Positions 1,865-48,620 of a stretch of DNA of 64,000 nucleotides are shown here, one piece after another. The first letter of the stretch is position 1. Each line of letters begins with the position of its first letter. A program made the position numbers and the translations under genes. The stretch comes from Candidatus Bathyarchaeota archaeon (GTDB taxonomy: Archaea; Thermoproteota; Bathyarchaeia; Bathyarchaeales; Bathycorpusculaceae), in contig JAAYYI010000033.1 of NCBI GenBank assembly GCA_012515445.1, forward strand, positions 10-64,009. The letters run 5' to 3'. The notes beneath the pieces are model-generated. The model saw nothing but the letters and a program-made list of their open reading frames with translations. It made no database searches and was not told the origin of the DNA.

Positions 1865-2596
1865 ATGAAAATACTAAACGAGTTTGTACCAACACGTAAA
1901 TTCTTCAAGCTAGCAGAAGAACTCAAAGACCTTGTCGACGGCTGGAACGTAACTGACAGCGCAGCAGGCTATCCAGCACCAAGCGGCGTAGTCGTAAGCT
2001 GTTTACTGAAGAACAAGTACCCAGACAAGTACGTCTGCCCAATCTTCATTCTACATTACAAAGGCCCAGTTGAAGTCGGAGGATTAGCATTAGCATCCGA
2101 CATCGTTGGTTTAGACGGCTTAGCCGTAACCATGGGCGACAAGCCAAGCATCGGCGAACCAATCAAAATGCTTCCTTCATCAGAGGCTGCACGAGACTTC
2201 ATACGAAGCGACAAAGTTAAAATCAAAAACCTAAAACTCGGCTGCTTACTAAGCGCAAGATCAAACGTTGAAGACGCAATCAAACGTGCACAGGAACCAT
2301 GGGACTTCGTTTACTTCATGAGACTAAACGACGACTCATTCGAGCAACTAAAAGCAGTATCCGCTGCATGCAAGAAAATCAACAAGCCACTCTTCGCGTA
2401 CTTCCTCGTCGGAACTGAAAAGAACAAGGAAATCGTGAAAGTAATCGGTTGGCCAGTAACAGCCACAATGGACACTGTTGAAGAGAAAGCAGCAAGACTC
2501 GTCGGCCTAGTTGACGGCATCATCGCTACATGCGCTGGTGACGCTGAAGGCGACAAACTGATGCTGCAGAAACTCCAAAAGTTCCGCACAGCATAA
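1865..2596 (+). CDS. Short MetF-like (methylenetetrahydrofolate reductase family) TIM-barrel protein
   Basis: 243-aa ORF. NEFVPTRK resembles the MetF EFFPPRT motif, NVTDSAAG resembles SVTYGAGG, and GLAVTMGDKP resembles ALRGDPP. It is shorter than canonical MetF (about 290 aa). The assignment is from recalled motifs only. Confidence 0.5.
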   Translation: MKILNEFVPTRKFFKLAEELKDLVDGWNVTDSAAGYPAPSGVVVSCLLKNKYPDKYVCPIFILHYKGPVEVGGLALASDIVGLDGLAVTMGDKPSIGEPIKMLPSSEAARDFIRSDKVKIKNLKLGCLLSARSNVEDAIKRAQEPWDFVYFMRLNDDSFEQLKAVSAACKKINKPLFAYFLVGTEKNKEIVKVIGWPVTATMDTVEEKAARLVGLVDGIIATCAGDAEGDKLMLQKLQKFRTA

Positions 2597-2607
2597 AATA
2601 AACCATC

Positions 2608-2623
2608 GAGACCTCAGGGTCTC
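2608..2623. terminator. Perfect 6-bp hairpin between convergent genes, followed by a T-run
   Basis: GAGACC-TCAG-GGTCTC lies 12 nt after the MetF-like stop and about 35 nt from the 3' end of the signal peptidase gene. A T-rich tract sits at 2640-2657. Confidence 0.4.
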
Positions 2624-2657
2624 CTCCCCTAATCAATTAATCTATTCTTTTTTCCTT

Positions 2658-3359
2658 TTAAATTATTATTTCATCTTTTGGTTGCGGCTTCCGTTTTACC
2701 ACTGGCAAGACAAATTCAAGAATCACCAGTAAAAGTATAAGCACAAATACCAGTGGCAGACCCCAAGAGACATACCTGAAAAAGAGCGTAACCCAACCCA
2801 AAAGCGGAATCCTTAGAATTACTTTTCCTTCAACTAAATCAGCCGAGACACCCTGCCCGTTTGCAGTGTAGATGCTATTGGAATCATATTCACTTAACGA
2901 AGGAACTGCTGGCCACTTTTCGCCGTTACCATCTCCCTTTGTCTGGAAATGCAAAGTGCCATTTTCTGTGTAGCTAGCCACTATACGATGAACTATGGGA
3001 GTGCCGGTTTGGTCATTGGGTTTCTTGTATACTATTATGTCGCTGTTTGGGTAGTCAGTGTTTAATGTTTTTGGGTCTACGTCTTGGATGATTATTACGT
3101 CGCCCACGTTTAGTGTTCTGTTGAATGGATGAGTTAATGTCCAGAGGAAATCCTCAAGAGTATACGGCCGGTAATCAGGCCCTGGCACGGTGTTGTTGGG
3201 TATGCACATGCTGCTGCTTTCAACCACCCTAACAGGTGTTGAGACACCGAAAATCAGTGGCAGACTAAAGAAGAAACTGAGAACCAGAACTACAACAAGC
3301 ACCATAGAAAGTATGGTTCTAGCGTTCTTGTTGTGCCGTACCCTGTCAAGCACGTTCAA
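2658..3359 (-). CDS. Archaeal-type signal peptidase I (S26B-like)
   Basis: 233-aa ORF with an N-terminal TM helix, the SSSMCIP Ser box, GDVIIIQ, the IVHRIV His box and a C-terminal TM helix. Confidence 0.7.
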   Translation of the reverse strand: MNVLDRVRHNKNARTILSMVLVVVLVLSFFFSLPLIFGVSTPVRVVESSSMCIPNNTVPGPDYRPYTLEDFLWTLTHPFNRTLNVGDVIIIQDVDPKTLNTDYPNSDIIVYKKPNDQTGTPIVHRIVASYTENGTLHFQTKGDGNGEKWPAVPSLSEYDSNSIYTANGQGVSADLVEGKVILRIPLLGWVTLFFRYVSWGLPLVFVLILLLVILEFVLPVVKRKPQPKDEIII

Positions 3360-3475
3360 ATGTTTTCCTTCATGTCAAGGCGACCCCTTGTCTTATAAGA
3401 ATTTGTTAACTCCACCCAATCGGGAAGATAATATTTAAGTTCATGCATAATCAGGCATCTTAAGGAGAGCTAACT

Positions 3476-4234
3476 ACGAACACAATCCAAGTATTACCCG
3501 TCACAGGCTTACCACTAATACATCCCGGCGACCAATTAGGCAAGATGATCGCGGAAGCAGCAGAAAAGCAGGGTACCCCAATACAGCCGCACGACGTCAT
3601 CGTAGCCACCCACGTCGCTGTCTCAAAATCTGAAGGCAACATAGTAAACCTCGACGCCGTCAAGCCGTCCGAGAGAGCTATCGAGATCGCTAAGCAAACA
3701 AACAAAGACCCCGCAATGGTGGAAGTTATCCTGCAGGACACCAAAGAAATCGTCCGCATAGGCCAAAACAGCATCATAACCGAAACCAAAAGCGGCGTCG
3801 TCTGCGCCAACTCTGGGGTAGACCGCTCAAACGTGGCGGGCGACCGAAACGTGGTACCTCTGCCAAAAGACCCTAACGCTTCAGCGGCTAGAATCCGGCG
3901 GGAAATAGTTGAGCAATCCGGCGTTGAGGATGTGGCTGTTATCGTGTCTGATACCCATGGGCGTCCGTTTAGGATGGGGGAAATCAACATAGCAGTCGGC
4001 TACGCTGGCTTCAAACCTATCAGGGACAGGCGTGGAGAGAAAGACCTGTTCGGATATGTGCTGCGCATAAAGATGACTGCGGTTGCAGACGAGTTAGCTT
4101 CAGCGGCTGAGCTTGTAATAGGTCAAGCAAATGAAGGAATCCCCGTGGCTATCGTGCGAGGCTACAACTATACATCAAGCGAAGAACAAACCACACAGCT
4201 TATCCGAGCTAAGGAAAAAGACCTGTTCAGGTAG
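3476..4234 (+). CDS. cofE: Coenzyme F420:L-glutamate ligase CofE (start proposed at ACG 3476; first ATG is 3545)
   Basis: Motifs GVVCANSGVDRSNV, PLPKDPNASA and DTHGRPFR are present. The conserved N-terminus IQVLPVTGLPLIHPGDQL is encoded upstream of the first ATG, in a stretch with no ATG/GTG/TTG. GGAG at 3464-3467 lies 8 nt before ACG 3476. Product confidence is high; the start is uncertain. Confidence 0.85.
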   Translation, partial: TNTIQVLPVTGLPLIHPGDQLGKMIAEAAEKQGTPIQPHDVIVATHVAVSKSEGNIVNLDAVKPSERAIEIAKQTNKDPAMVEVILQDTKEIVRIGQNSIITETKSGVVCANSGVDRSNVAGDRNVVPLPKDPNASAARIRREIVEQSGVEDVAVIVSDTHGRPFRMGEINIAVGYAGFKPIRDRRGEKDLFGYVLRIKMTAVADELASAAELVIGQANEGIPVAIVRGYNYTSSEEQTTQLIRAKEKDLFR

Positions 4235-5752: not shown

Positions 5753-6871
5753 ATGGAAAAGAACGAAAACTCTGAAAGCAATGAAGAACTAAAAAATCAT
5801 GGACCGTTCTCCCTTCTAGATGGAGCAACCTCTCGTGTACCTACTATTACTCCAGAGCTCTCCTTTGCAAGCAGAATAGCTCGCGACCGCACAAAACCGC
5901 TCGAGGAAAGACTCGAAAACTTTGAGATTATCCTCGACTCCGAAGTAGGCGATACAAGCCTTACTCGTGCACGCAACATTGAACGAGAGATCGGTCTACG
6001 CCAGATTTACCTTAAATTTGAGGGCGGCAACCCAACAGGTACCCAAAAAGACCGCATCGCTTTCTCCCAAGCACTAGATGCTTTGCGACGTGGCTACAGC
6101 GAAATCACCGTTGCTTCATGCGGCAACTATGGCGCAGCCATCGCCTTGGCATCTTATCTTGCAGGTTTGCACTGTTTGATTTACGTTCCAGAAGGTTATC
6201 ATGCGAACCGTATTAAAGAAATCAAGTCCCTAGGCGCCGAATTAATCAAGGTTCCAGGTGACTACGAGGAAGCCGTGATTGTTTCACGTCAGAAAGCAGA
6301 AGAAAACGGTTACTATGACGCAAACGCCGGCGGCAGCAACACTAACTTACAATTCAAAGCCTACGGCGAAATCGCGTACGAAATCTACGATGAGCTCCGC
6401 GACGCCCCTGCAGCCGTAGCTGTACCAGCATCCAACGGCTCCACATTAGCCGGCATCTATCGTGGCTTCATCAGCCTCTATAACAGAGGAAAAACCTCCC
6501 GCATGCCTCGTCTCATCGCAGGCTCATCGTATGGCATGAACCCCATTGTCAACGCCTTCGTTAAGAACATGCCTAACTGCTGCGATTTAGATCCTGATAA
6601 AATTCACAACACAACAGTTAACGAGCCACTGATTAACTGGCGCTCCATCGACGGCGACTACGCCTTAACTGCCATCCGCCAAAGCCACGGCTGGGCAGCA
6701 TACGCCACCGACAAAAGTATGGTGGATTATGCTCGCCTCATCCGCGACAAAGAAGGCCTCAATGTGCTGCCCGCCTCCACCGCAGGCTTAATAGCGTTGC
6801 TAGATAGGCACAAAAAAGAAGCGTACCCAAGCGACCGCTATGTCGTCATATTAACAGGACGTAAAGCGTGA
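5753..6871 (+). CDS. PLP-dependent fold-type II enzyme, threonine synthase-like
   Basis: 372-aa ORF. LKFEGGNPTGTQKDR carries the PLP-lysine motif, a variant of NPTGSFKDR. SCGNYG and a Gly-rich phosphate loop region are also present. Confidence 0.75.
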   Translation: MEKNENSESNEELKNHGPFSLLDGATSRVPTITPELSFASRIARDRTKPLEERLENFEIILDSEVGDTSLTRARNIEREIGLRQIYLKFEGGNPTGTQKDRIAFSQALDALRRGYSEITVASCGNYGAAIALASYLAGLHCLIYVPEGYHANRIKEIKSLGAELIKVPGDYEEAVIVSRQKAEENGYYDANAGGSNTNLQFKAYGEIAYEIYDELRDAPAAVAVPASNGSTLAGIYRGFISLYNRGKTSRMPRLIAGSSYGMNPIVNAFVKNMPNCCDLDPDKIHNTTVNEPLINWRSIDGDYALTAIRQSHGWAAYATDKSMVDYARLIRDKEGLNVLPASTAGLIALLDRHKKEAYPSDRYVVILTGRKA

Positions 6872-6878
6872 CCCAAAC

Positions 6879-7934
6879 ATGGTACAGAAAGCAATAGTGT
6901 ACTGTGACCGAGAATACCTAAACGCAAACGGAAAAACAGCCCACGGACTAGTCCGTTACACCACACGCTACCAAATTGCGGGTGTAGTAGACTCTACTGT
7001 GCCAGCTTCAGGCGATGCTGGAGAAATTCTGGATGGAAAAGCAAGAAGCATCCCCCTATTCCACAACTTGGAGGAGGCCTGTGAAAAAACCAAGCCGGAC
7101 ACTTTTATCATCGGCGCAGTCTCAGAGGGCGGCGTTTTGCCAGCAGGCTATGACAAAGCTGTTGATTACGCGCTGGAGCATCATCTTAACGTCGTGTCGG
7201 GGCTGCATCAATTCATCTCCGACGACCCCCGCTTCGCCTCGGCTGCCAAGAGAAACGGCTGCCAAATCACCGACGTTCGCAAACTCTTCCGCGATCACAA
7301 ACGCTTCTACACCGGTGAAATAAGCAAAGTAGGCGCAACACGAATCGCCGTGCTGGGTACAGATTCCGCAATCGGCAAACGCACCACCGCAGTGCTGCTG
7401 GTTAACGAGTTGCGCAGGCGCGGCAGAAAAGCAGACATGATATTCACTGGTCAAACCGGCTGGATGCAGGGCTGGCCGCATGGCGCCATAATTGATGCTA
7501 TGATAAATGACTTTGTTTCGGGTGGTATAGAGGGTGCAATCATCGATTCTTGGCGTGACGAAGCTCCAGAGTTTGTTTTAATCGAAGGACAAGGCAGCCT
7601 GTTGCACCCGTTTTTCCCCGGCGGTTTTGAGATTATGGCAGCTGGGCAAATCCACGGCTTCACTATGCAGGACGCGCCTGGTAGACCGTGCCTCGATGGG
7701 TTCCCCGGCTACCCAATGCCTGACACACGCCGCGTAGTAAAACTGGCTAATCTTCTTTGCGGCAAGCCGCTAGTGGGCATCAGCATCAATCACGAGAACA
7801 TGACGCCACAGCAGGTTCAAACTGCCAAAGCCGACATGCACAAGAAATTCCATGTGCCCATTGAGGATCCAGTGTTTGATGGCGTAGTTAAGCTGACTGA
7901 TGCAATTGAGAAGCTACGTGACGGTGAAGCTTAA
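6879..7934 (+). CDS. DUF1611-family protein (DgcN-like P-loop/Rossmann protein)
   Basis: 351-aa ORF. The N-terminus has GKTAHGLVRY. The P-loop-like GTDSAIGKRTTAVLL and EGQGSLLHP are typical of DUF1611. It starts 8 nt after the upstream stop. Confidence 0.75.
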   Translation: MVQKAIVYCDREYLNANGKTAHGLVRYTTRYQIAGVVDSTVPASGDAGEILDGKARSIPLFHNLEEACEKTKPDTFIIGAVSEGGVLPAGYDKAVDYALEHHLNVVSGLHQFISDDPRFASAAKRNGCQITDVRKLFRDHKRFYTGEISKVGATRIAVLGTDSAIGKRTTAVLLVNELRRRGRKADMIFTGQTGWMQGWPHGAIIDAMINDFVSGGIEGAIIDSWRDEAPEFVLIEGQGSLLHPFFPGGFEIMAAGQIHGFTMQDAPGRPCLDGFPGYPMPDTRRVVKLANLLCGKPLVGISINHENMTPQQVQTAKADMHKKFHVPIEDPVFDGVVKLTDAIEKLRDGEA

Positions 7935-9371: not shown

Positions 9372-9825
9372 CCATTTGAACGGCGTCGCGTGAGCCATGG
9401 TGCTCAAAGCGGTAATACCCCGCCAGCTGCTTTTTGGGCTTGTAACCGGCTTTCTGGTAGAGTGCGATGGCGGTTTTGTTGCCCTCGGAGACCTCAAGCT
9501 GAGAGAAGTTTAGCCCTCGCCGTCTCATTTCCTCTTCGGCAGCAAAGAGCAGCCGCAGCCCGATGCCTTGACCCTGATAAGCTGGGTCAACATCCAGCGT
9601 TTCAAGGTAACCGCCCCGAGTGCCCTTGCGGTAGAGCGCCACAATAAAGCCCCTGATGACTTCTGCGCATGTTTCGACGAGGCAGGTGCTGTTGGCTTTG
9701 TAGATGAGGTAGGCAAGCTGGCTTTTGGGGTAGGCGGTGGCTCCAGTGAAACAGCGGTTTTCGATTGCGACAATGGCTTCAATGTCGCTGGGTTCTGCAT
9801 TGCGAATTACTGCTGCTTCAGCCAT
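9358..9825 (-). CDS. GNAT acetyltransferase, RimI-like
   Basis: 155-aa ORF with IRNAEPSDIEAIVAIE, YQGQGIGLRLL and NKTAIALYQKAGY. Size and motifs match N-terminal acetyltransferases of the RimI type. Confidence 0.8.
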   Translation of the reverse strand: MAEAAVIRNAEPSDIEAIVAIENRCFTGATAYPKSQLAYLIYKANSTCLVETCAEVIRGFIVALYRKGTRGGYLETLDVDPAYQGQGIGLRLLFAAEEEMRRRGLNFSQLEVSEGNKTAIALYQKAGYKPKKQLAGYYRFEHHGSRDAVQMVKTL

Positions 9826-9959
9826 GTATGGTCAACTGGATAGAACATCGAGGCTTCTTTGGGAAAAACATTTCGATGCTATACAATCAGGCAACTTCTC
9901 TTTTTTCGACACCTATTTATCTTCTTATTTGTTTAACCTCTCCATCAGAGTTGAGACAT

Positions 9960-10925
9960 ATGCCCAAAGAATCAAATGAAGCGCATAAAATCGCAGTTAA
10001 AGATTACCAGTTCACAGAAAACATGACTGTAGACGAGCTTGTCAAGCAGATGGAGTTAGCTTGGGGTTTCACGGCGGGCAAGCTGGCTACAGGCGTCAAC
10101 ATAATGGAAGCCATGATCGACGACAAGAAATGCGTCAAAATCCTCTCGTTCACCGCCGACATCATCGCTACAGGCACAAGAGGTGTCATCCGCGAACTAG
10201 TCAAGCGCAAACTAGTCGATGTTATAATAACCACCTGCGGCACACTCGACCATGATGTCGCCCGCGTTACCCGCGATTATTACAAGGGTAGCTTCATGAT
10301 GAGCGACAGCAAACTGCACCATGAAGGCGTCAACCGACTCGGCAACGTCCTTGTACCAAACGACAGCTATGGTACAGTTATCGAAAAGAAAATCCTCGGT
10401 TTACTTGAAGAACTCTATAAAGAAGGCAAAAAAGAACTATCCACAATGGAGCTGAACCGCGAAATCGGCTTAAGATGCGTCGACGAAACCTCAATTGCAT
10501 ATTGGGCAGCTAAAAACGATATCCCAATCATCGTGCCCGGACCCACAGATGGCTCAGTAGGCTACCAACTCTGGTACTTCAGTCAAGACCACAAAGACTT
10601 CCGCATAAACATCCTGAAAGACGAGGAATACCTAAACAACCTCATCTTCGACGCCAAAAAAACCGGCGCCCTCATCGTCGGCGGCGGCATCAGCAAGCAC
10701 CACACGATCTGGTGGAACCAGTTCAAAGACGGACTCGACTATGTCGTCTACATATCGACGGCGGACGAGTGGGATGGCAGCTTAAGCGGCGCTCGGCCAC
10801 GTGAAGCAGTATCGTGGGGCAAGATTAACGAGAAGGCAAAGATGACGATGATCGAAGGCGACGCCACCATGGTGTTGCCGGTAATCACAGCGGCCTTGAT
10901 TGATCGCTTAAGTAAAAAGAAGTAA
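9960..10925 (+). CDS. dys: Deoxyhypusine synthase
   Basis: 321 aa from ATG 9960. Motifs are TADIIATGTRG, ITTCGTLDHD, GGGISKHH and DGSLSGARPREAVSWGKI, the last carrying the catalytic Lys. Confidence 0.85.
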   Translation: MPKESNEAHKIAVKDYQFTENMTVDELVKQMELAWGFTAGKLATGVNIMEAMIDDKKCVKILSFTADIIATGTRGVIRELVKRKLVDVIITTCGTLDHDVARVTRDYYKGSFMMSDSKLHHEGVNRLGNVLVPNDSYGTVIEKKILGLLEELYKEGKKELSTMELNREIGLRCVDETSIAYWAAKNDIPIIVPGPTDGSVGYQLWYFSQDHKDFRINILKDEEYLNNLIFDAKKTGALIVGGGISKHHTIWWNQFKDGLDYVVYISTADEWDGSLSGARPREAVSWGKINEKAKMTMIEGDATMVLPVITAALIDRLSKKK

Positions 10926-10986: not shown

Positions 10987-12066
10987 TTATGCCTTTGGCA
11001 TATCTTTGAAGATCCAACTCATGTCTGGACCCTTGCGTTTCTCAGTTACGCGCTCAGAGAGTGCGTGGCATATGAGTGGCAGCGCGATTGTTGCGTCACA
11101 GTAGCAGACTGCGCGTGTACCGGTTTGGCTGTTGATTTTGCCCCAGCTGATAGCTTCCTCAAGTGTGCATCCGGATAGTCCGCCCCATTGTGGGCTGTCG
11201 GTGGTGATTTGGATGGCGTATTTGTGGGGGTAGTAGTATTCCTGTATGCTTTTGCGTAAGCCGCCTTTTCTGCCTTTGACACCTTGGTCTTCGGTCATTG
11301 GTGAAACGGAGATGGCGATGAGCTGGGTTAGGTCTTTTGGTACGCCGCCGCCGATGTAGACGACGCCGACTTCTTTGGTTTTTGTGCCGATCTGGACGAA
11401 CTGGTCGAATTCTTTAACGCTGTCGACGTGGACGTTGTGCCCTTTGTTCTTTGCCAAGAGGAAGGTTTCGCCGTAGGCGCTGTCAACCATTGCTGGACTG
11501 AAGATTGGGACGCCGTTAGCTGCCGCAACTGCGGTGATGGCTGGAACCTTTTTCTTGCCGAGGAATTTGCCTAGGCCATGGAGAAATTCTGCGGATGTAT
11601 ACATGTAGTCTTGGTTGCAGGTCATGACGTAGTCTGTAACTAGGTCTTCCATTTCGCGGTAGTCTGTTTCTTTGCCATAGACATCGTAGTATCTGTTGAC
11701 GTCGTCGTTTAGGAGCTGTGCGTCGTCAACCATGTGGCTGCCTTGGTAGTAGCCTAGGCCCATTGCGTCAACGATGTCCTCAGATACGTTTGCGCCTGTG
11801 GAGATCAAGACGTCGATGAAGCGGTTCTCGATAAGCCAGTTGATGATTGTCCATTGGCCCGCTGTGCTCATGGAGCCTGCGAATCCGAGGGCGATGACTG
11901 TGTCTTTTTCTCTAATCATGTTTTCCCAGACATCGACGGCTTCGCCTAGTTTGCGGCCTTGGTAGGCGGTTTTACTCATTTCTTTTAGTAACTGTGAAAT
12001 GGGTTTTTGCTTAGTAACCTTGATGGGTTCTAGCTTCTTACTAAAATAGTCGTTACCTTTTGTCAT
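10987..12066 (-). CDS. Deoxyhypusine synthase-family paralogue
   Basis: 359 aa from ATG 12066. Motifs are GFAGSMSTAG, LISTGANVSED, GGGVPKD and GGLSGCTLEEAISWGKI; the SWGK Lys is retained. Confidence 0.75.
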   Translation of the reverse strand: MTKGNDYFSKKLEPIKVTKQKPISQLLKEMSKTAYQGRKLGEAVDVWENMIREKDTVIALGFAGSMSTAGQWTIINWLIENRFIDVLISTGANVSEDIVDAMGLGYYQGSHMVDDAQLLNDDVNRYYDVYGKETDYREMEDLVTDYVMTCNQDYMYTSAEFLHGLGKFLGKKKVPAITAVAAANGVPIFSPAMVDSAYGETFLLAKNKGHNVHVDSVKEFDQFVQIGTKTKEVGVVYIGGGVPKDLTQLIAISVSPMTEDQGVKGRKGGLRKSIQEYYYPHKYAIQITTDSPQWGGLSGCTLEEAISWGKINSQTGTRAVCYCDATIALPLICHALSERVTEKRKGPDMSWIFKDMPKA

Positions 12067-12279
12067 GTTAATTGGACACCTGTGTCGTTGTAAATAATAG
12101 GCTTGTATTAAAAATTTATTATTTAAAAAAGAGGCAAACAATAGTCTGTTGAACTAAAAAAAGGGCATTATTTTGAGATAGATAAATTCGGAGCCTGTTT
12201 CGCAGCCAAATAAAGGTGGGAAGCTTGACTTACCAGCCTGTTCGGCGCTGATGATGCTGTTTTTAAGTGTCAGACGCTG

Positions 12280-14223
12280 CTACATTTTTTCTGGCGCTGT
12301 TACTCCGACTAGGTTGAGGGTGTTTCGCATGACGGTTTGGATAGCTTTTGTTAGGGCGAGTCGTGCGTCGCCGAGTTTCGGGTTGTCGGCTTTCAGCACG
12401 GGGTATGCGTTGTAGAATGTGTTGAATTTATCTGCGAGTGCGTTTGCGTAGTCGGCGATCATGGCGGGTTTTAGGTACTCTGTTGCTTCGATGAACATGT
12501 CTGGGAAGTTTGCGAGGTTTAAGATGAGTTCCTTCTCCAGCTTCTCCGCCAGTAGGCCATAGTCAACGTTTTCCGGTTCACGTCCAGCTTTGCGGATGAT
12601 ACTGCAAGCACGTGCGTGGGTGTACTGCACGTATGGTGCGCTGTTGGTTTCGAAGTTAAGCACACGCTCCCACGTAAACACCACAGGCTTTCCCGGGTCA
12701 ACATCGATAAGTGCATATCGGACTGCGCCTAACCCGACGAAGTTGGCGATGTTATGCTTCTCCGCCTCGCTCAGCATTGGCGAGCGCTTGGTAACCTCCT
12801 CGTACGCGCGCCTAACTGCCTCGTCTAATACTTCGTCGAAGGTGATGTAGTGCCCTCGTCGGCTGCTCATCTTGTAACCCGGCAACGTAACCAGGTTGTA
12901 GGCGAAGTGTACTAGGTTGTCAGCGTCTTTACCGTGGCCCAATGCGTAGAGCGCCAACTTTAGCTGGAGCTGCGCAAGAGACTGCTCCATACCGATGACG
13001 TTGATGACTTTTTCGGCGTGCCTAAACTTCCAAATCGTGTATGCGATGTCGCGGGTGGTGTAGAGTGTTGTGCCGTCTGCACGTACCAGCGTTAAAGGCG
13101 GAACTTCGTTGTTTGGGCTTAATCCAAGTTTAGCTTTGAGGTTGAGGGTGTTAGCTGCTTTGTCGGCGTTGAATTGCTGTACGCCTTTCTCGTTGAAGAT
13201 AAACGGGGTTGACTGCAGCTTCGTCATGACTTCGCTTACCTGCGGCGTCCAAACGAAGTCGCTTTCCCAATCCCACGAGTCATAGGTAACTCCGACACGT
13301 TGCATTGTCGCTCGGAACCCGTCTAAGCAGAGGTCGCTGACTTCGCGGATTAACTCTTTAGCGGCTGGTTGTCCGTCTTCGTATCCACGGTTTAAGCGGC
13401 TGATTTCGCCTTCCGGATCATCGTCGAAGCTGATTTTTTTGAGTAATGTGTCGAAGAGCACGGGGTATTTCTCGCGTAGCTCAGCAGAGATCGATACCCA
13501 CTCGTCGAGTTCCTTGTTAGCTTTAGCCAGCTCTTCTGGGTTGTCAGCGGCTTTGGCTTGGAGCTTCTTTAGGCGGTTGATTTCCACGATGCAGCAGGTA
13601 ACCGTGTAGATTTTGCCAACGAAATGATCGGATTTCTCAGTCGGTTTAGGCTTGCCTAGCTTGGCGTATCCATATGCGACTACGCTGGATTGGCGTCCGA
13701 CGTCGTCTATGTAGTAGTGTCGGGATACGTTGTGGCCTCTGAGTTGCAGGATGCGCGCAATGGTGTCGCCGATTGTTGGGTTGCGTGCCTGACCGATGTG
13801 GATTGGGTGGAGTGGATTGACGCTTGTGTGCTCCACAATGATTTTTTGGGGCTGATCTGTTTTAACGAAGCCGTAGCTTTTGTCCAACTCTTTTATGGAG
13901 GTGAAGATTAAAGCGCTGAATTTTGCGAAGTCAACGTAGAAGTTAATGTATCCTGCACCTGCAGGCTCAACCTTCTCGATTAAGTCGAAGCCTGACTTGT
14001 CAACTGCGTCAGACAATTGCTTAGCTAAGTCGGTTGGTTTCTGTTTCAGCTGTTTTGCCAGCTCGAAGCACAGTGAAGTAGCCAGTTGGCCGTAGTCGAT
14101 GTTGGGTGTTTTCTTAAGAACTATGGTTGGCTGTTTAATATCGGGTAGAGACTTTGCCAAGGCGGCTGCTAATGCAGTTTGGCATTCAGCTCTGAACAGC
14201 TCATATGGGTTTTGTGCAATCAT
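12280..14223 (-). CDS. argS: Arginine--tRNA ligase
   Basis: 647-aa ORF with SVNPLHPIHIGQARN (HIGH region) and KMSSRRG (KMSKS-like). The C-terminal anticodon-binding domain pattern ends ...GVTAPEKM. Confidence 0.95.
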   Translation of the reverse strand: MIAQNPYELFRAECQTALAAALAKSLPDIKQPTIVLKKTPNIDYGQLATSLCFELAKQLKQKPTDLAKQLSDAVDKSGFDLIEKVEPAGAGYINFYVDFAKFSALIFTSIKELDKSYGFVKTDQPQKIIVEHTSVNPLHPIHIGQARNPTIGDTIARILQLRGHNVSRHYYIDDVGRQSSVVAYGYAKLGKPKPTEKSDHFVGKIYTVTCCIVEINRLKKLQAKAADNPEELAKANKELDEWVSISAELREKYPVLFDTLLKKISFDDDPEGEISRLNRGYEDGQPAAKELIREVSDLCLDGFRATMQRVGVTYDSWDWESDFVWTPQVSEVMTKLQSTPFIFNEKGVQQFNADKAANTLNLKAKLGLSPNNEVPPLTLVRADGTTLYTTRDIAYTIWKFRHAEKVINVIGMEQSLAQLQLKLALYALGHGKDADNLVHFAYNLVTLPGYKMSSRRGHYITFDEVLDEAVRRAYEEVTKRSPMLSEAEKHNIANFVGLGAVRYALIDVDPGKPVVFTWERVLNFETNSAPYVQYTHARACSIIRKAGREPENVDYGLLAEKLEKELILNLANFPDMFIEATEYLKPAMIADYANALADKFNTFYNAYPVLKADNPKLGDARLALTKAIQTVMRNTLNLVGVTAPEKM

Positions 14224-39678: not shown

Positions 39679-40512
39679 ATGCAGACGCCCAAATACCACA
39701 TTTACCTCGCATACGCCGAAGCAGACAAATCCGGCTTCCGATTCAACATCACACAAGAAGAGCTGCAGCGCACCTTCGCCGAACCCATCAACGAGGGCAA
39801 ACAATTCTGGTTCTTGGGCAGACTCCTAAATCCCATGAAAATCGCCAAGGTCCTAATTTTTTGGTCCTATGAGGAAGCGAACATGCTTGACTTGCCCAGC
39901 AACGAAAGCATCGTCGTCGAGAAGGACAAAAAATACGTGGTTGAATCCATAGAGAGGGGCAAAGTTAAAGGCGCCTATTTGTGCACGGACAAATTCTTGG
40001 CTAAACCCCAAACTGTGGCAGCGCCTACAGGGGCAACTTTTTCTGGTAAGCGTCGTGTTCTAATCGTCTCCGGCACCGACGATGCCATGAAGCAGAAGCT
40101 GACAAAAGCGCTGGGCAAACTCCTGCTTGTGCCGGTGGTGCTGTGCGAGGAGCCGGGGCATGGTAGAAAAATTGTGGAGCGCTTCACCGCCGCATACGCC
40201 GACGTTGGCCTAGCAGTGGTGCTGCTGTCACCAGACGACTACGTCTACGCCAAAAGTGAGCAACCGACCAAACGAAAACTAAAACCCCGCCAGGACGTCG
40301 TATTTGAACTTGGCTACCTGCTCGGTAAACTGGGCAAAGAAAAGGTGCTGGTTCTCTATAGGGAGTCGGAGAAAGGCGAGTTCGAAGTTAACACTGACTT
40401 CGAGGGCGTAACCTCCGCGCCGTTCGACAGGCTTGACAGCTGGAAACTGGCGCTTCTGCGCGGGCTACTCGGCAACGGCTACCAAGTTGAGGGCGACAGA
40501 ATCCTAAAATAA
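39679..40512 (+). CDS. Two-domain protein: unknown N-terminal domain + TIR-like nucleotide-binding domain (Cap12/PycTIR-type, PF10137-like)
   Basis: 277-aa ORF. The C-terminal half has RVLIVSGTDD, VVLLSPDD and RQDVVFELGYLLGKLGKEKVLVL, matching the recalled signature of the TIR-like family. Confidence 0.65.
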   Translation: MQTPKYHIYLAYAEADKSGFRFNITQEELQRTFAEPINEGKQFWFLGRLLNPMKIAKVLIFWSYEEANMLDLPSNESIVVEKDKKYVVESIERGKVKGAYLCTDKFLAKPQTVAAPTGATFSGKRRVLIVSGTDDAMKQKLTKALGKLLLVPVVLCEEPGHGRKIVERFTAAYADVGLAVVLLSPDDYVYAKSEQPTKRKLKPRQDVVFELGYLLGKLGKEKVLVLYRESEKGEFEVNTDFEGVTSAPFDRLDSWKLALLRGLLGNGYQVEGDRILK

Positions 40513-40538: not shown

Positions 40539-40614
40539 GCGGTTGTAGTCTAGCTCGGTAGGACTCCAGCTTCCCAAGCTGGCTACCCGGGTTCAAATCC
40601 CGGCAACCGCACCA
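40539..40614 (+). tRNA. tRNA-Gly (anticodon CCC), CCA encoded
   Basis: A cloverleaf was folded by hand. The acceptor stem is GCGGTTG/CAACCGC and the D stem GTCT/GGAC. The anticodon stem CCAGC/GCTGG carries loop TTCCCAA, and the T stem CCGGG/CCCGG carries loop TTCAAAT. Discriminator A is followed by CCA. Confidence 0.9.
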
Positions 40615-40763
40615 AATTATACATTAAATGCGTAGTTCTGCATTTTACTAACGCACACTTTTCAAGTGATGTCCAACCCGCAACTGATTCTTGCTCGTTA
40701 TGGATGCTTTTATATTTCGTGCTGGAGCTAATTCGGTTAATAGACATTCGGGAGAGACTATGG

Positions 40764-42080
40764 TTGAATAAAACAGCAAAAACACTTTCAATTCTTGTAA
40801 TCAGCGTCTTATGCCTGTCCATCTTCACCTCATCCGCAGCGGCGGGAACCACGGGGTTATGGATATACGGCGGAGACAAATACGACATGGCAATCGCCAA
40901 CATGGCCACCATGGATGGCAGCCACGTACTAGTAGGCTGCACACAATCCTACGGTTCATTAGCCGACGACCTATGGCTTTTCAAAGTAGCAGGCGACGGC
41001 TCTACAACATGGAGCAAGCACTACGGTGGTGAAGGCAACGAATCTGGCTTTAATGTTATCACAACAGTCGACGGTGGATATGCAGTAATCGGCGCCACAA
41101 CCTCATATGGTGCAGGCGAAGAAGACATCTGGCTGGTTAAAACAGACTCGGAGGGCAATATGCAGTGGAACCAAACCTACGGCGGCTTATACGACGACGA
41201 AGGCTGGATGCTAATCCAAACCAGCGACGGCGGCTACCTCATCACAGGCTTAATCTGCACTTCTGAAGGCATAGGGGACGGTTGCCTAATAAAAACAGAC
41301 TCATCCGGCAATCTGGAATGGCAGAAAACCTACGGTGGAGCAGGCGACGAAGGCTTTTACGGCATAACCAAATCCTCCGAAGGCGGCTACATCCTAGCTG
41401 GATACACAAATTCAACTGGCGCTGGCAAGTGCGACGTTTGGCTAGTAAAGGTAAGTGCCTCAGGTACCGAGCAGTGGGCTAAAACCTACGGCGGCTCAGA
41501 AGACGATTACGGGTATATCGCTTTTGAAACCGAAACAGACTTCGTCGTTGACTGCACAACCTACTCTTACGGCGCAGGCGAAGCAGATGTTTGGCTGCTT
41601 AAAGTCGACGCTATGGGCGGTTTAATGTGGAACTACACCTATGGTGGACCAGAAGACGACCATGGCTGGTACGGCGCAAAAACCACCGACGGCTTCGCAC
41701 TTGGCGGCTACACCTACTCTTATGGGGTAAACGGTAACGCTGCTGCTTGGCTCATAAAAGTAGACATAAACGGCATGACTATGTGGAACCAAACCTATGG
41801 GTCAGCAGCCAAAGACTTCTACGGTTGGGCGGTAACGCAGACAAGCGACGGTGGCTATGCAATTTCCGGCGAAGTATTACCAGTAGATGTCGATACATGC
41901 GACGCTTTCCTAGTCATCACCGACGAGAACGGCGATGCATTGATTCCTGAAGACACCGCCAATACCGAGCTTATCCCACTATGGGCTGTCGGCGCGATCG
42001 TTGCGGTTATAATCGTTGTTTTGCTGGTTGTTGTTCTGCTTATGCGGCGAAAACCCAAGCAGCCGCAACCAACACAATAA
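40764..42080 (+). CDS. Secreted 7-repeat (beta-propeller-like) surface protein with C-terminal TM anchor
   Basis: A TTG 40764 start gives the signal peptide MNKTAKTLSILVISVLCLSIFTSSAAA. There are seven repeats of about 50 aa (W.KTYGG..D.G....T.DGGY...G.T.S.G.G..D.WL.K.D..G...W). The C-terminus is a TM helix plus RRKPKQ. Confidence 0.6.
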   Translation: MNKTAKTLSILVISVLCLSIFTSSAAAGTTGLWIYGGDKYDMAIANMATMDGSHVLVGCTQSYGSLADDLWLFKVAGDGSTTWSKHYGGEGNESGFNVITTVDGGYAVIGATTSYGAGEEDIWLVKTDSEGNMQWNQTYGGLYDDEGWMLIQTSDGGYLITGLICTSEGIGDGCLIKTDSSGNLEWQKTYGGAGDEGFYGITKSSEGGYILAGYTNSTGAGKCDVWLVKVSASGTEQWAKTYGGSEDDYGYIAFETETDFVVDCTTYSYGAGEADVWLLKVDAMGGLMWNYTYGGPEDDHGWYGAKTTDGFALGGYTYSYGVNGNAAAWLIKVDINGMTMWNQTYGSAAKDFYGWAVTQTSDGGYAISGEVLPVDVDTCDAFLVITDENGDALIPEDTANTELIPLWAVGAIVAVIIVVLLVVVLLMRRKPKQPQPTQ

Positions 42081-42192
42081 CCACCTTTTCTTTTTATTAT
42101 TTTTTTTGTTTTACAATTAGATCGCTTGCTGGGTTCATGCCGGCAAGGGTTAAATCCAGCATTCTGCATCGGGTTATACGAGGCTCCAAAAA

Positions 42193-42852
42193 ATGAAGTG
42201 TCTAATCCCAATAGTAGCAATCGCAGTATGCTGCCTCTTTATCGGCGGCTTAATCTTAGTAATTGAACTCAACCAGCCCACAGGCGAAAACGCGAACGCT
42301 AACTCAAACGGCGACAACCCCGTTTTAGGCTCAGTGGGCTCACCCAATTCGCCCATCGTCGGTTCGCCGGCGTATTCAAGCGGCAACATACAAGTATTTC
42401 TAAAAGTCGACGGCGTCACAGGAGAATCCACCGACGCAAAACATCTCGGCTGGGTCGAAGCAACCGCCTATAACTGGACAGTTACCGTTCCACAATCCAG
42501 CAGCGGCAGACCAATCGGGTCACCATATCCCAGTAACTTCATTGTAGTAGCGGAAACCAGCAAAGCTTCCCCTGTCCTATTCCGAGATTGTGTAATGGGC
42601 AAACAATTAACCGTAACAATCGCGGTTCAATCCACCGACGGCAACGGCAAAGCAGTGGATATATGCACTTGGAGACTCGGCAATGTCATCATGAGTTCGT
42701 ATAATACCAACACAGGTCTCGACGGAGGCAGCCGCGTCTACGACGTATATGGCTTTATGCCAGGCAAGGTTGAGGTGACGGTGCAACAAATCAACGCTGA
42801 TGGCAGCTTAGGGTCACCGACTTCAGCAGAATGGGAATACGTTTCAAGGTAA
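42193..42852 (+). CDS. Membrane-anchored Hcp-like protein (type VI secretion tube protein family fold)
   Basis: 219-aa ORF with an N-terminal TM helix and a low-complexity linker. About 150 aa are then collinear with recalled Hcp1. VFLKVDGVTGESTDAKHLGWVEATAYNW matches MFIKIGDVKGESKDKTHAEEIDVLAWSW, and TSKASPVLFRDCVMGKQL matches IDKSTPNLMMACSSGKHY. Confidence 0.7.
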   Translation: MKCLIPIVAIAVCCLFIGGLILVIELNQPTGENANANSNGDNPVLGSVGSPNSPIVGSPAYSSGNIQVFLKVDGVTGESTDAKHLGWVEATAYNWTVTVPQSSSGRPIGSPYPSNFIVVAETSKASPVLFRDCVMGKQLTVTIAVQSTDGNGKAVDICTWRLGNVIMSSYNTNTGLDGGSRVYDVYGFMPGKVEVTVQQINADGSLGSPTSAEWEYVSR

Positions 42853-43437: not shown

Positions 43438-44346
43438 TTAGCTTTTCGGTTTTTTCTTGTAGAGTATAGCTGCTGCTGTTAGTGTTAGAAGTGCCGCTGT
43501 CAGTAGAATTGTAGCTGGGAACTCTGGAACCATATTTGTTGGTACGGGCGTAATCAACGGGGGCTGTTCAGTAGACGACTCAACGTAAAGGGTGTGCAGT
43601 ATATCGGCCACGGCGTTAACCGCCAGATTCAAGAATTCTCCGCATCTGCTACTGAAGACTGAGTTGCTCCAGTTGTAGTTGGTATCCATCCAGACACAGC
43701 CTAAATGGTTGCTGCCGCCAAAAGTTGTGTCGTAAGCTAAAGCCGCCGTGACATTATACACTGTCGTTGTGCTTAGATTGCCGTCGTAGAAGAGATAACT
43801 GTTGAAGGTGTCAGAGTAGCTGTTGGTTCTAGTGTTGACGTAGTTTTCGTAATCGCTATGATGCTGTTCTGCACCCCAAGCTGTATTTACACCCATGTTA
43901 TGCGCATAAACCGCTACGTCGGAAACGTAATGAGTCATTATTCCCGCAGTTCTGGCTGCGTTGGCATAGTCTTTACTTTTAAGGTAAGACAGTGCCTGAT
44001 TGTAGGTTTCATTTGCTCTCTTGGCTGCGGCATCATCAACTAACATTCCCTCAGTTGAGTAGTAAATATGATGCTTGGTGGTGTCGCCGATGCCCTCGAT
44101 GATATCATTGCCGTTGTCGGGTAGTTCTGTGCCCAAGAGGTAAACCACCAAGTTATCGAGAATGTACTGTTTCTCTGCTTGCGGCAGGTAATCCAGCGCG
44201 TGCTCAGCAATCCAGTCGTGGGTGCCATAATCCGGGTGCGCCAAATCCGCGGAGTAGCCGCCATTACTCCAGCACAAAGCAGGTGCTAAACCGCATAAAA
44301 GAGGAATACAACAAGTGAACACTAAAGCGGGCTTACTTATCTTCAA
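43438..44346 (-). CDS. Secreted zinc-dependent phospholipase C / S1-P1 nuclease-like protein with PEF-CTERM-like sorting signal
   Basis: 302-aa ORF with a signal peptide, W..GTHDWIAEHAL and HHIYY / HYVSD..V.AH His-rich metal motifs. The C-terminus is VPEFPATILLTAALLTLTAAAILYKKKPKS. Confidence 0.55.
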   Translation of the reverse strand: MKISKPALVFTCCIPLLCGLAPALCWSNGGYSADLAHPDYGTHDWIAEHALDYLPQAEKQYILDNLVVYLLGTELPDNGNDIIEGIGDTTKHHIYYSTEGMLVDDAAAKRANETYNQALSYLKSKDYANAARTAGIMTHYVSDVAVYAHNMGVNTAWGAEQHHSDYENYVNTRTNSYSDTFNSYLFYDGNLSTTTVYNVTAALAYDTTFGGSNHLGCVWMDTNYNWSNSVFSSRCGEFLNLAVNAVADILHTLYVESSTEQPPLITPVPTNMVPEFPATILLTAALLTLTAAAILYKKKPKS

Positions 44347-47441: not shown

Positions 47442-48620
47442 ATGAATCGAACAGGCAAATATTTGTTCACATCCGAATCCGTCGGAGAAGGTCACCCAGA
47501 CAAAGTAGCAGACCAAATCTCTGACAGCGTCCTAGACGCAATCTTCAGCCAGGATCCAAAGGCACACGTTGACTGCGAAACCCTCGTCATGCAGGGCACA
47601 GTCATGATCACTGGCCAAATCACCACAAAAGCAAGCATAAACATCCCAAACATCGTCCGAGGCACCCTAAAAGACATAGGCTTCGACAACGCCAAAGACG
47701 GCTTAGACTGGGAAACATGCGGTATCCTAGTCTCACTAACTGAGCAATCCCCAGACATCGCTATGGGTGTACAGGAATCTAACGGTAAAGAGCAGGGAGC
47801 AGGCGACCAAGGAATGGTTTTCGGTTACGCCTCAAACGAAACCAAGGAACTGATGCCGCTGCCAATCTTGCTTGCTCACAGACTCGTAAAACGCTTAGCC
47901 ACCGTCCGCCACGATGGTACAATGCCATACTTGCGCCCAGACTGCAAATCCCAAGTAACAGTCGAATACGAAAACGGCAAACCAAAATGCGTCAAAACAG
48001 TCGTCATCGCAGCTCAGAACAACGGCTCAGTTGAAGACTCAGTTCTCAAAAAGCAAATCATCGACCAAGTCATCAAAAAAATAATCCCCGCCAACATGCT
48101 TGCGGCAGACGTGAACTACGTCATTAACGGCACAGGCCGCTTCGTCATCGGCGGAACACTAGCAGACTCCGGCTTAACCGGTCGCAAAATCATCGTTGAC
48201 ACATACGGCGGTGTAGGCGCTCACGGCGGCGGATGCTTCAGCGGCAAAGACCCCTCAAAAGTGGACCGCAGCGGATGCTACATGGCACGCTACATCGCAA
48301 AGAACATTGTTGCAGCCGGCTTAGCAGATCAATGCCAAGTCCAAATCAGCTACGCCATCGGCGTCGCCAAACCAATCAGCGTACTAGTCGATACTAATGG
48401 CACTGGCAAAATCCCAGACGAGCAAATCCTCGACTTGGTCCAGAAGAACTTTGACATGACTCCATACGGTATCATCACAACACTCAACCTAAGAAGACCA
48501 ATCTACAAGAAAACCGCAGCTTTCGGTCACTTCGGCCGCGACGATGTCGAGTTCCCGTGGGAACGCTGTGACAAAGCAGAGATTCTCAAGAAAGCAGCAG
48601 CTGAATACAAGAAAGCATAA
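47442..48620 (+). CDS. metK: S-adenosylmethionine synthetase, bacterial/eukaryotic MetK type
   Basis: 392-aa [35 protein letters not shown] and [17 protein letters not shown] are near-identical to the bacterial MetK signatures. Confidence 0.95.

Follow-up and report, generated by a model that had tools for sequence, protein, structure and literature searches.

Introduction

[quoted passage not shown] The canonical protein has no signal sequence and assembles in the cytoplasm. What is the role of an Hcp protein that is found in an archaeon, behind a membrane helix? This question is raised by a gene in a 64,000-nucleotide stretch of contig JAAYYI010000033.1 from a Candidatus Bathyarchaeota archaeon; the whole stretch that was analyzed is called the window here. 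In the encoded protein (the window protein), a hydrophobic N-terminal helix and a polar linker precede a complete Hcp domain (Table 1). On balance we favor the reading that the protein is inserted by the Sec pathway and forms a surface-tethered Hcp ring, probably N-glycosylated, the role of which would be that of a scaffold or of a platform for binding in the envelope.

Identification of the Hcp domain

A preliminary description, made from the DNA sequence, had claimed an open reading frame (ORF) with a transmembrane (TM) helix, a linker of about 35 residues, and a domain collinear with Hcp1 over its whole fold. The coordinates of the ORF proved exact, and all the peptides quoted are present in the translation. 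The claimed collinearity also held, and both a profile search and a structure prediction, which had been proposed there as checks, support the Hcp homology.

The Pfam profile T6SS_HCP (PF05638) matched residues 69-175 with an E value of 3e-20 and a score of 73.3 bits (gathering cutoff, 23.5), covering profile positions 1-111 of 129. A phmmer search against the sequences of the Protein Data Bank (PDB) gave 15 Hcp-containing chains at E < 1e-3, with a collinear alignment across residues 66-216. Among them are 3V4H from Y. pestis (5e-11), 5XEU and 5XHH of Salmonella Hcp, and 1Y12 (9.5e-6), the P. aeruginosa Hcp1 with which the preliminary description had compared the protein. No tube family of phages or of extracellular contractile injection systems (eCIS) appeared in a Pfam scan at E values up to 10, which gave T6SS_HCP and a weak, sub-threshold Ig_J match only. 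To our knowledge, phage and eCIS systems use tube families of their own and not PF05638.

A word-indexed search of 5.8 billion proteins yielded a family of 14 clusters, all of which carry PF05638; their identity to the window protein is 36-100%. The alignment of these 14 sequences was used as input for an AlphaFold2 model of the window protein. In this model, residues 4-26 are predicted to form a helix and residues 22-51 to be disordered (predicted local distance difference test, pLDDT, < 50), and the β-rich domain has pLDDT values of 74-88. When the model was compared with the PDB by Foldseek, Hcp1 structures ranked first (probability 1.00; target-normalized TM-scores 0.72-0.82; identity 20-24%), and every chain among the best 50 matches contains Hcp. 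By sequence and predicted fold, the window protein is a genuine member of the Hcp family.

The membrane helix and the linker

The N-terminal segment (residues 1-26, MKCLIPIVAIAVCCLFIGGLILVIEL) is strongly hydrophobic, with Kyte-Doolittle values that average 3.1 over 15 residues. In the linker that follows (residues 27-61), seven Asn, five Pro, five Gly, and five Ser are found among 35 residues. The helix is present in all 11 full-length members of the family, with the consensus MKWLIPxxAVxICCLFVGGLIxVVELNQ; the remaining three members are 5'-truncated fragments. Together with an Asn/Ser/Gly-rich polar linker, it persists even in P0013 and P0014 (36-38% identity). Across the family, the linker varies in length and keeps the same character.

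Comparison with the homologous locus L004 revealed three synonymous and five amino-acid-changing codon differences in the TM segment, and 12 and seven, respectively, in the linker. Such synonymous-only changes are the pattern of a translated sequence. In the Hcp domain, between roughly one third and 60% of the codons that differ show them, depending on the pair. A downstream start codon is rejected, because no Met occurs between residue 1 and the Hcp domain and because the anchor shows conservation and coding constraint and is part of the transcript, as described below. The preliminary description had allowed that a true start after the TM segment would make the protein an ordinary tube protein; conservation, the synonymous codons, and the RNA contigs close this way out.

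The features of a type II signal-anchor seem to be present, namely Lys2, the hydrophobic residues 4-26, and then Glu25-Leu-Asn-Gln. We infer that the helix is retained as a signal-anchor rather than cleaved, since its hydrophobic core is about 23 residues long and no A-x-A or small-x-small cleavage motif conserved across the family was seen by eye after the helix. Lys2 would be inside, and Glu25 and the remainder of the protein outside. It should be mentioned that two other kinds of N-terminus were considered and rejected. For a lipoprotein, the residues ahead of Cys13 and Cys14 are Val or Ile, which does not make a lipobox, and these cysteines are missing in P0013 and P0014. For a type IV pilin-like signal, no charged segment with a G/A cleavage site was seen by eye ahead of the hydrophobic stretch.

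If the segment were a long cleavable signal peptide, the product would be a soluble ring or monomer, secreted or pseudo-periplasmic, for example a carrier of small proteins. Classical signal peptides with A-x-A-like sites are indeed present in the archaeal relatives P0076 and P0165 (locus L053), and canonical Hcp rings hold and stabilize small effectors in their lumen (PMC13035841). However, the hydrophobic stretch of the window protein has the length of a TM helix and is longer than the core of a signal peptide, a conserved small-x-small motif is lacking, and the long, conserved, flexible linker is best understood as a tether. Release from the membrane is considered unlikely, although it keeps some weight.

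The topology also bears on the question of whether the protein is part of an injection machine. Tube subunits have to polymerize within a sheath, in the cytoplasm. A protein that is exported and anchored cannot do this, which argues against a projectile tube irrespective of the other genes of the genome. The predicted anchored, exported state is in conflict with the definition of the tube subunit as a cytoplasmic, signal-less protein, and the window protein lies outside this definition. It might still be an ordinary tube subunit of an unrecognized archaeal contractile system encoded elsewhere, if the TM segment were an artefact or were removed. Its full-length Hcp domain with the canonical motifs would suit such a role, orphan hcp genes far from a T6SS cluster are common in bacteria according to the literature, and sheath homologues have been reported for some Bathyarchaeota metagenome-assembled genomes (MAGs) (PMC9230969). 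On the other hand, the TM helix and the linker are conserved, under coding constraint, and present in RNA, with no Met before the domain, and a Sec-type anchor would bring the domain to that side of the membrane where it could not assemble within a sheath. In addition, no gene of a contractile injection system (CIS) is present in the window, and neither T6SS nor CIS genes are annotated in the 20-kb syntenic loci L001 and L002 or occur near the gene in L004. A role as an ordinary tube subunit is thus very improbable.

A sequon in the Hcp domain

Asn94-Trp-Thr is the sole N-x-S/T sequon in the whole protein. It stands at the position of "SWG" in canonical Hcps. At this position, all 16 domains of the archaeal family have a sequon, of the form N-[WY]-[ST]; any sequon is found there in only four of 22 domains from other exported Hcps, one of 25 from canonical Hcps, and two of 270 from multi-domain Hcps. 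N-glycosylation at such sequons is common on archaeal surface proteins. A conserved sequon specific to the family fits an extracytoplasmic location. From the sequence, it is reasonable to suppose that the Hcp domain is extracytoplasmic and glycosylated, with the putative glycan probably at Asn94.

Transcription of the gene

Assemblies of about 20 public metatranscriptomes contain the Hcp gene, the sources being anaerobic digesters, bioreactors, wastewater, sludge, and soil; the runs with the window sequence itself are mostly from digesters and bioreactors. RNA contigs from three true RNA libraries (X25, X26, and X28) were mapped on the locus. The contigs of the upstream gene stop at 42026-42084, nothing covers 42085-42191 in the three libraries, and the contigs of the Hcp gene start at 42192 in X28, a single base ahead of the ATG, at 42207 in X25, and at 42243 in X26. 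From these contig ends and the uncovered gap, the Hcp gene appears to be a transcription unit of its own, and the 5' end that codes for the TM helix is present in RNA. The start one base before the ATG is only a suggestion of a leaderless mRNA, since contig ends are not mapped transcript ends.

The intergenic region contains a T-rich tract at about 42086-42113, past the upstream stop codon, followed by the A/T-rich hexamers TTAAAT (42150-42155) and TTATAC (42174-42179) and by GAGG (42180-42183). The promoter of the Hcp gene is probably located in this region. In the intergenic sequence, no element is spaced from 42192 by the canonical distance.

Exported relatives and possible ring formation

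An exhaustive HMMER search with the family profile against 1.84 billion representatives gave 6,521 matches at E values up to 1e-3, and the best 161 of these were compared by class. Among them, the canonical Hcps are signal-less and 155-170 residues long. Besides the window family, 22 single-domain Hcps of 185-290 residues have a strongly hydrophobic N-terminal segment. The exported single-domain Hcps include four clusters in archaeal or archaeal-looking contexts, the window family being one of them (Table 1). As to the distribution of TM-fused Hcps in archaea, which the preliminary description had proposed to determine, Hcps with export signals are thus found in at least four archaeal lineages. 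Two other exported Hcps, P0097 and P0094, are in bacterial contexts. No T6SS genes were found within 10 kb of the exported Hcps of the archaeal clusters or of P0097 and P0094. It should be mentioned that in a positive control, the canonical Hcp locus L007 (Massilia), a T6SS cluster was not evident from the ORF list alone.

The archaeal family is equally distant from the other exported Hcps and from the canonical ones (about 30% mean and 38% maximum identity). A single clade of exported Hcps was rejected on this ground, and export signals have probably been added to Hcp more than once.

About 60 multi-domain Hcp proteins were also found, and their domain count peaks sharply at six: among the best 161 matches, 73, 21, 7, 8, 11, 40, and 1 proteins have one to seven domains, respectively. 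The linkers between the domains are mostly 15-25 residues long, and most of the "five" cases hold a domain-sized gap. A Pfam count gave, independently, six Hcp stretches in all five proteins examined. Seventeen of the 60 have an N-terminal "LExLExRxLL" motif, which we take to be typical of planctomycete secreted proteins, and the planctomycete-typical PSCyt, PSD1, and DUF1501 are among the neighbors. Others among the multi-domain Hcps have no N-terminal signal and carry C-terminal Ig-like, cadherin, PKD, RTX, or serralysin domains. Judged from these features, the multi-domain proteins look extracellular. No T6SS genes were found near six-Hcp genes in the loci examined.

One six-Hcp protein, P0018 (1,048 residues), was modeled from a 12-sequence alignment, with a mean pLDDT of 80.5 and a predicted TM-score (pTM) of 0.77. 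Each of its domains superposes on Hcp1 with a root mean square deviation of 1.2-1.5 Å and 36% identity. A pTM of 0.77 over six domains means that their mutual arrangement is fixed by the model. From this value and the count of six, the obvious reading of the model is a closed pseudo-hexameric ring. In all three loci examined, the six-Hcp gene is directly adjoined by a gene for a methyltransferase of 506-523 residues (Methyltransf_23, MethyTransf_Reg, and WHD_PKMT), an architecture that resembles protein-lysine methyltransferases (PKMTs). The pair may be a functional one, with the surface ring as the target of methylation.

The preference for six tandem copies and the pTM of P0018 suggest that Hcp functions as a ring outside the T6SS too, and by analogy we infer that the window protein would also form a ring. 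The earlier idea that the Hcp ring has been repurposed at the surface is indirectly backed by these relatives; as for the pore that had been mentioned beside it, nothing in the analysis points to a membrane pore.

A monomeric or non-ring surface protein, for example an adhesin in which the Hcp barrel is a mere stable fold, should also be considered. Some canonical segments are replaced in the archaeal family (SWG by NW[ST], and RKAGG by QSTD--G), the extended loop is shortened in P0013 and P0014, and the window protein scores below the cutoff of the NCBIfam TssD model TIGR03344. The six-Hcp relatives are, moreover, joined to Ig, cadherin, and PKD domains of the adhesin type. However, the structurally studied Hcps among the PDB matches are all hexameric rings, and the preference for exactly six domains in the exported relatives, with the pTM of 0.77, suggests that the ring was kept outside the T6SS. 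A non-ring protein is improbable for these reasons.

Genomic context

Pfam scans that covered nearly every ORF of at least 120 residues in the window, together with small neighboring ORFs, revealed no T6SS, CIS, or phage-tail family across the 64 kb, in agreement with the absence claimed in the preliminary description. The genes of the window include a five-subunit archaeal carbon monoxide dehydrogenase/acetyl-CoA synthase (cdh), a formylmethanofuran:tetrahydromethanopterin formyltransferase, F420-related enzymes, purine biosynthesis genes, and an arginyl-tRNA synthetase gene. The archaeal context that had been assumed is borne out by housekeeping genes such as cdh and the formyltransferase. 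As a separate observation, two convergent paralogues of deoxyhypusine synthase stand side by side at 9765-10925 (+) and 10987-12141 (-), with 354 and 295 bits to PF01916.

The order purL-purQ, TIR, Hcp, phospholipase C, cupin, ATP_bind_1, and metK is also found in L001, a 3.3-Mb contig of the European Nucleotide Archive (ERZ21878447, contig ctg45500c) in which the Hcp is 59% identical. The arrangement in L002 (GCA_040961665.1; Hcp 38% identical) is largely similar, and the local order in L004 (83%) is the same. The housekeeping genes on the flanks take part in the same synteny, which for this reason gives no indication of functional partners.

A functionless gene, recently transferred from bacteria or decaying, might be suspected from the small size of the family (14 clusters) and from its identity of about 30% to bacterial canonical Hcps, which fits horizontal transfer. 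But the gene is kept at the same syntenic position where copies are only 38-60% identical, the ORFs are intact, a share of the differing codons is synonymous only, and transcription is seen in many independent samples. It is hardly credible that the gene is functionless or a remnant. A viral origin was rejected, as a scan of IMG/VR gave one distant match (27% identity) and zero family members. In a metagenome scan for further family members, one 100%-identical fragment was the only one found; the other matches were distant Hcps.

The gene for the TIR protein, which lies upstream of the Hcp gene, keeps its place 5' of the Hcp region beside tRNA-Gly(CCC) in L001 and directly adjoins the Hcp gene in L002. 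A defense role for the Hcp protein was rejected: a PADLOC scan gave no match for it, and the TIR neighbor belongs to a general synteny that includes purL/purQ and metK.

The repeat protein encoded next to the Hcp gene has a weak SBBP β-propeller match but belongs to no Pfam family. Its RNA contig depth is the highest in the locus (21, compared with about 6; X25), so that a major surface protein is probable. The stretch just past tRNA-Gly(CCC), from 40539-40618 on to about 42080, looks like a variable region or a hot spot of integration. In run X12, contigs part from the window sequence at 40614 and 40618. Between the TIR gene and the Hcp gene, L001 has other genes over about 8 kb, L002 has nothing, and the window and L004 have the gene for a repeat protein of 458 or 462 residues.

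Other neighbors are a gene for a double zinc ribbon, in convergent orientation, and one for a DUF2769 protein. The phospholipase C gene is near the Hcp gene in L001, L002, and L004 as well. The tail of its product resembles the PEF-CTERM sorting signal for archaeosortases; NCBIfam gave no detection of PEF-CTERM on this protein. The metK gene is of the bacterial type, although its surroundings are otherwise archaeal, and it occurs in L001 and L002 as well; in most archaea, the methionine adenosyltransferase is of the archaeal type.

Table 1. Positions of the Hcp gene, its parts, its neighbors in the window, and related genes at other loci
Feature	Sequence	Positions	Strand	Basis or remarks
Whole gene, 219-residue signal-anchored (predicted) Hcp-family protein	Window	42193..42852	+	ORF listing; ATG start; stop codon 42850-42852
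Predicted signal-anchor, residues 1-26	Window	42193..42270	+	Lys2 before and Glu25 after a stretch of about 23 hydrophobic residues; predicted N-in/C-out
Asn/Pro/Gly/Ser linker, residues 27-61	Window	42271..42375	+	Low-complexity composition; predicted disordered tether
Hcp β-barrel domain, complete, residues 62-219	Window	42376..42849	+	Canonical motifs GES-D--H--W-E and SKA-P-L; invariant columns
Asn94-Trp-Thr sequon, candidate N-glycosylation site	Window	42472..42480	+	At the canonical Hcp "SWG" position
Intergenic region 5' of the Hcp gene	Window	42081..42192	+	Sequence; RNA contig gaps
TIR protein, 277 residues, CAP12/Pycsar-type	Window	39679..40512	+	PADLOC candidate single-gene defense system PDC-S35, E = 7e-40
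tRNA-Gly(CCC)	Window	40539..40614
Repeat protein, 458 residues, C-terminal TM helix	Window	40704..42080	+	"W-x-K-T-Y-G-G ... D-G-G-Y" units; signal-like N-terminus
Zinc-dependent phospholipase C homologue	Window	43438-44346	-	C-terminal PEF-hydrophobic-KKK tail, ending in PEFPATILLTAALLTLTAAAILYKKKPKS
MetK, bacterial-type	Window	47442-48620	+	TIGR01034, 561 bits
Exported Hcp P0072	L021	10001-10627		Among DUF8036, DUF8412, and HVO_A0261-type genes
Exported Hcp, P0076 cluster, member P0165	L053	3320-3937		Adjoins TiaS and RuBisCO large-subunit gene
Exported Hcp P0109	L005	3596-4486		Adjoins archaeal-type threonyl-tRNA synthetase; coiled-coil-like linker
Six-Hcp bacterial proteins, about 40 (P0015-P0028, P0030, P0033-P0046, others)	L020; L055	8001-11378; 7741-12516		900-2,164 residues
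PKMT-like methyltransferase	L020; L055; P0018 contig	11536-13107; 5882-7402; 2120-3691	- (all)

Proposed role of the protein

In the favored reading, the Hcp domain would stand outside the cytoplasmic membrane on a tether of about 35 residues and would probably be N-glycosylated at Asn94. Six such domains would associate in a hexameric ring, as in the Hcps that have been studied, and this ring, with its six tethers, would lie beneath or within the cell-surface layer. There it would act as a static, ring-shaped envelope scaffold or binding platform, and no projectile tube would be stacked from it.

Several points weigh against this picture of a tethered ring. Its topology and the retention of the helix are derived from sequence rules, and the helix could be cleaved so as to free a soluble protein. 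The score of the window protein against TIGR03344 is 31.8 bits, under the cutoff of 58.9; it belongs to the Hcp family but has become divergent from the tube subunits that work. No gene emerged as a conserved functional partner, and "scaffold or binding platform" is thus a generic term. Finally, the sheath homologues reported in some Bathyarchaeota MAGs are of the phage type (PMC9230969).

A broader idea is offered tentatively, and we hold it with more doubt than confidence. Exported Hcp rings might be a widespread, undescribed class of extracellular rings that are independent of the T6SS. This class would comprise tethered or secreted single domains in archaea and bacteria, and the bacterial six-domain pseudo-hexamers, several of which occur in planctomycete-type contexts and whose genes are repeatedly paired with that of a PKMT-like methyltransferase. 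The window protein would then be a glycosylated, six-fold envelope ring with a structural or cargo-holding function. No description of an archaeal, signal-bearing, or six-tandem Hcp was found in the literature searched, the coverage of which excludes subscription-only papers. Public pipelines already label the archaeal family "type VI secretion system secreted protein Hcp."

If the proposal is correct, the tube fold has a second use, in the envelope and apart from contractile injection. The automatic Hcp label can mislead on function, as in this archaeal case of an exported, tethered Hcp where no injection machinery is seen, and caution is needed when a T6SS is deduced from metagenomic hcp matches. 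The window protein and its six-in-one-chain relatives point to the hexameric ring as a reusable extracellular building block. The archaeal host and the exported topology would surprise T6SS specialists, and a T6SS-independent role of the fold becomes testable. The protein is also a concrete, testable point of entry into the envelope biology of the Bathyarchaeia, a nearly unexplored field. Hcp1 rings already serve as scaffolds in protein nanotechnology, for which natural single-chain and tethered Hcp rings may be of interest.

Comparison with known systems

For the six-tandem relatives, a precedent is found in the hub protein VgrG/gp27, in which domains of the tube fold are fused in one chain and build a six-fold ring. 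VgrG forms its pseudo-hexamer as a trimer inside the contractile machine, each chain with two tube-like domains, whereas the six-Hcp proteins have six PF05638 domains, are apparently exported, and have no T6SS context.

The window protein shares with the extended or specialized Hcp effectors an appended non-Hcp segment, and with the orphan hcp genes of T6SS-positive bacteria the distance from a T6SS cluster. The extended effectors, however, have C-terminal toxins and a T6SS in the same genome. In the window protein, the addition is an N-terminal segment predicted to serve for export and anchoring, which would be incompatible with loading into a T6SS.

The heterohexamers of minor Hcps in Bacteroidales provide an example of the diversification of Hcp rings as cargo-binding platforms, beyond their use as units of a tube (PMC13035841; bioRxiv 10.1101/2025.01.09.632221). 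The minor Hcps are still cytoplasmic, signal-less, and encoded in T6SS loci, unlike the window protein.

With Hcp1/TssD, which forms the inner tube of the T6SS (P. aeruginosa PA0085, PDB 1Y12; A. baumannii 4W64; PF05638), the window protein has in common the family, the collinear domain, and the predicted β-barrel, and the GES-D--H and SKASP-L motifs are retained. It differs in its archaeal host and in the lack of nearby T6SS genes. To the shared domain it adds a conserved N-terminal anchor and a 35-residue tether, and in the archaeal family an N-x-S/T sequon stands in place of SWG.

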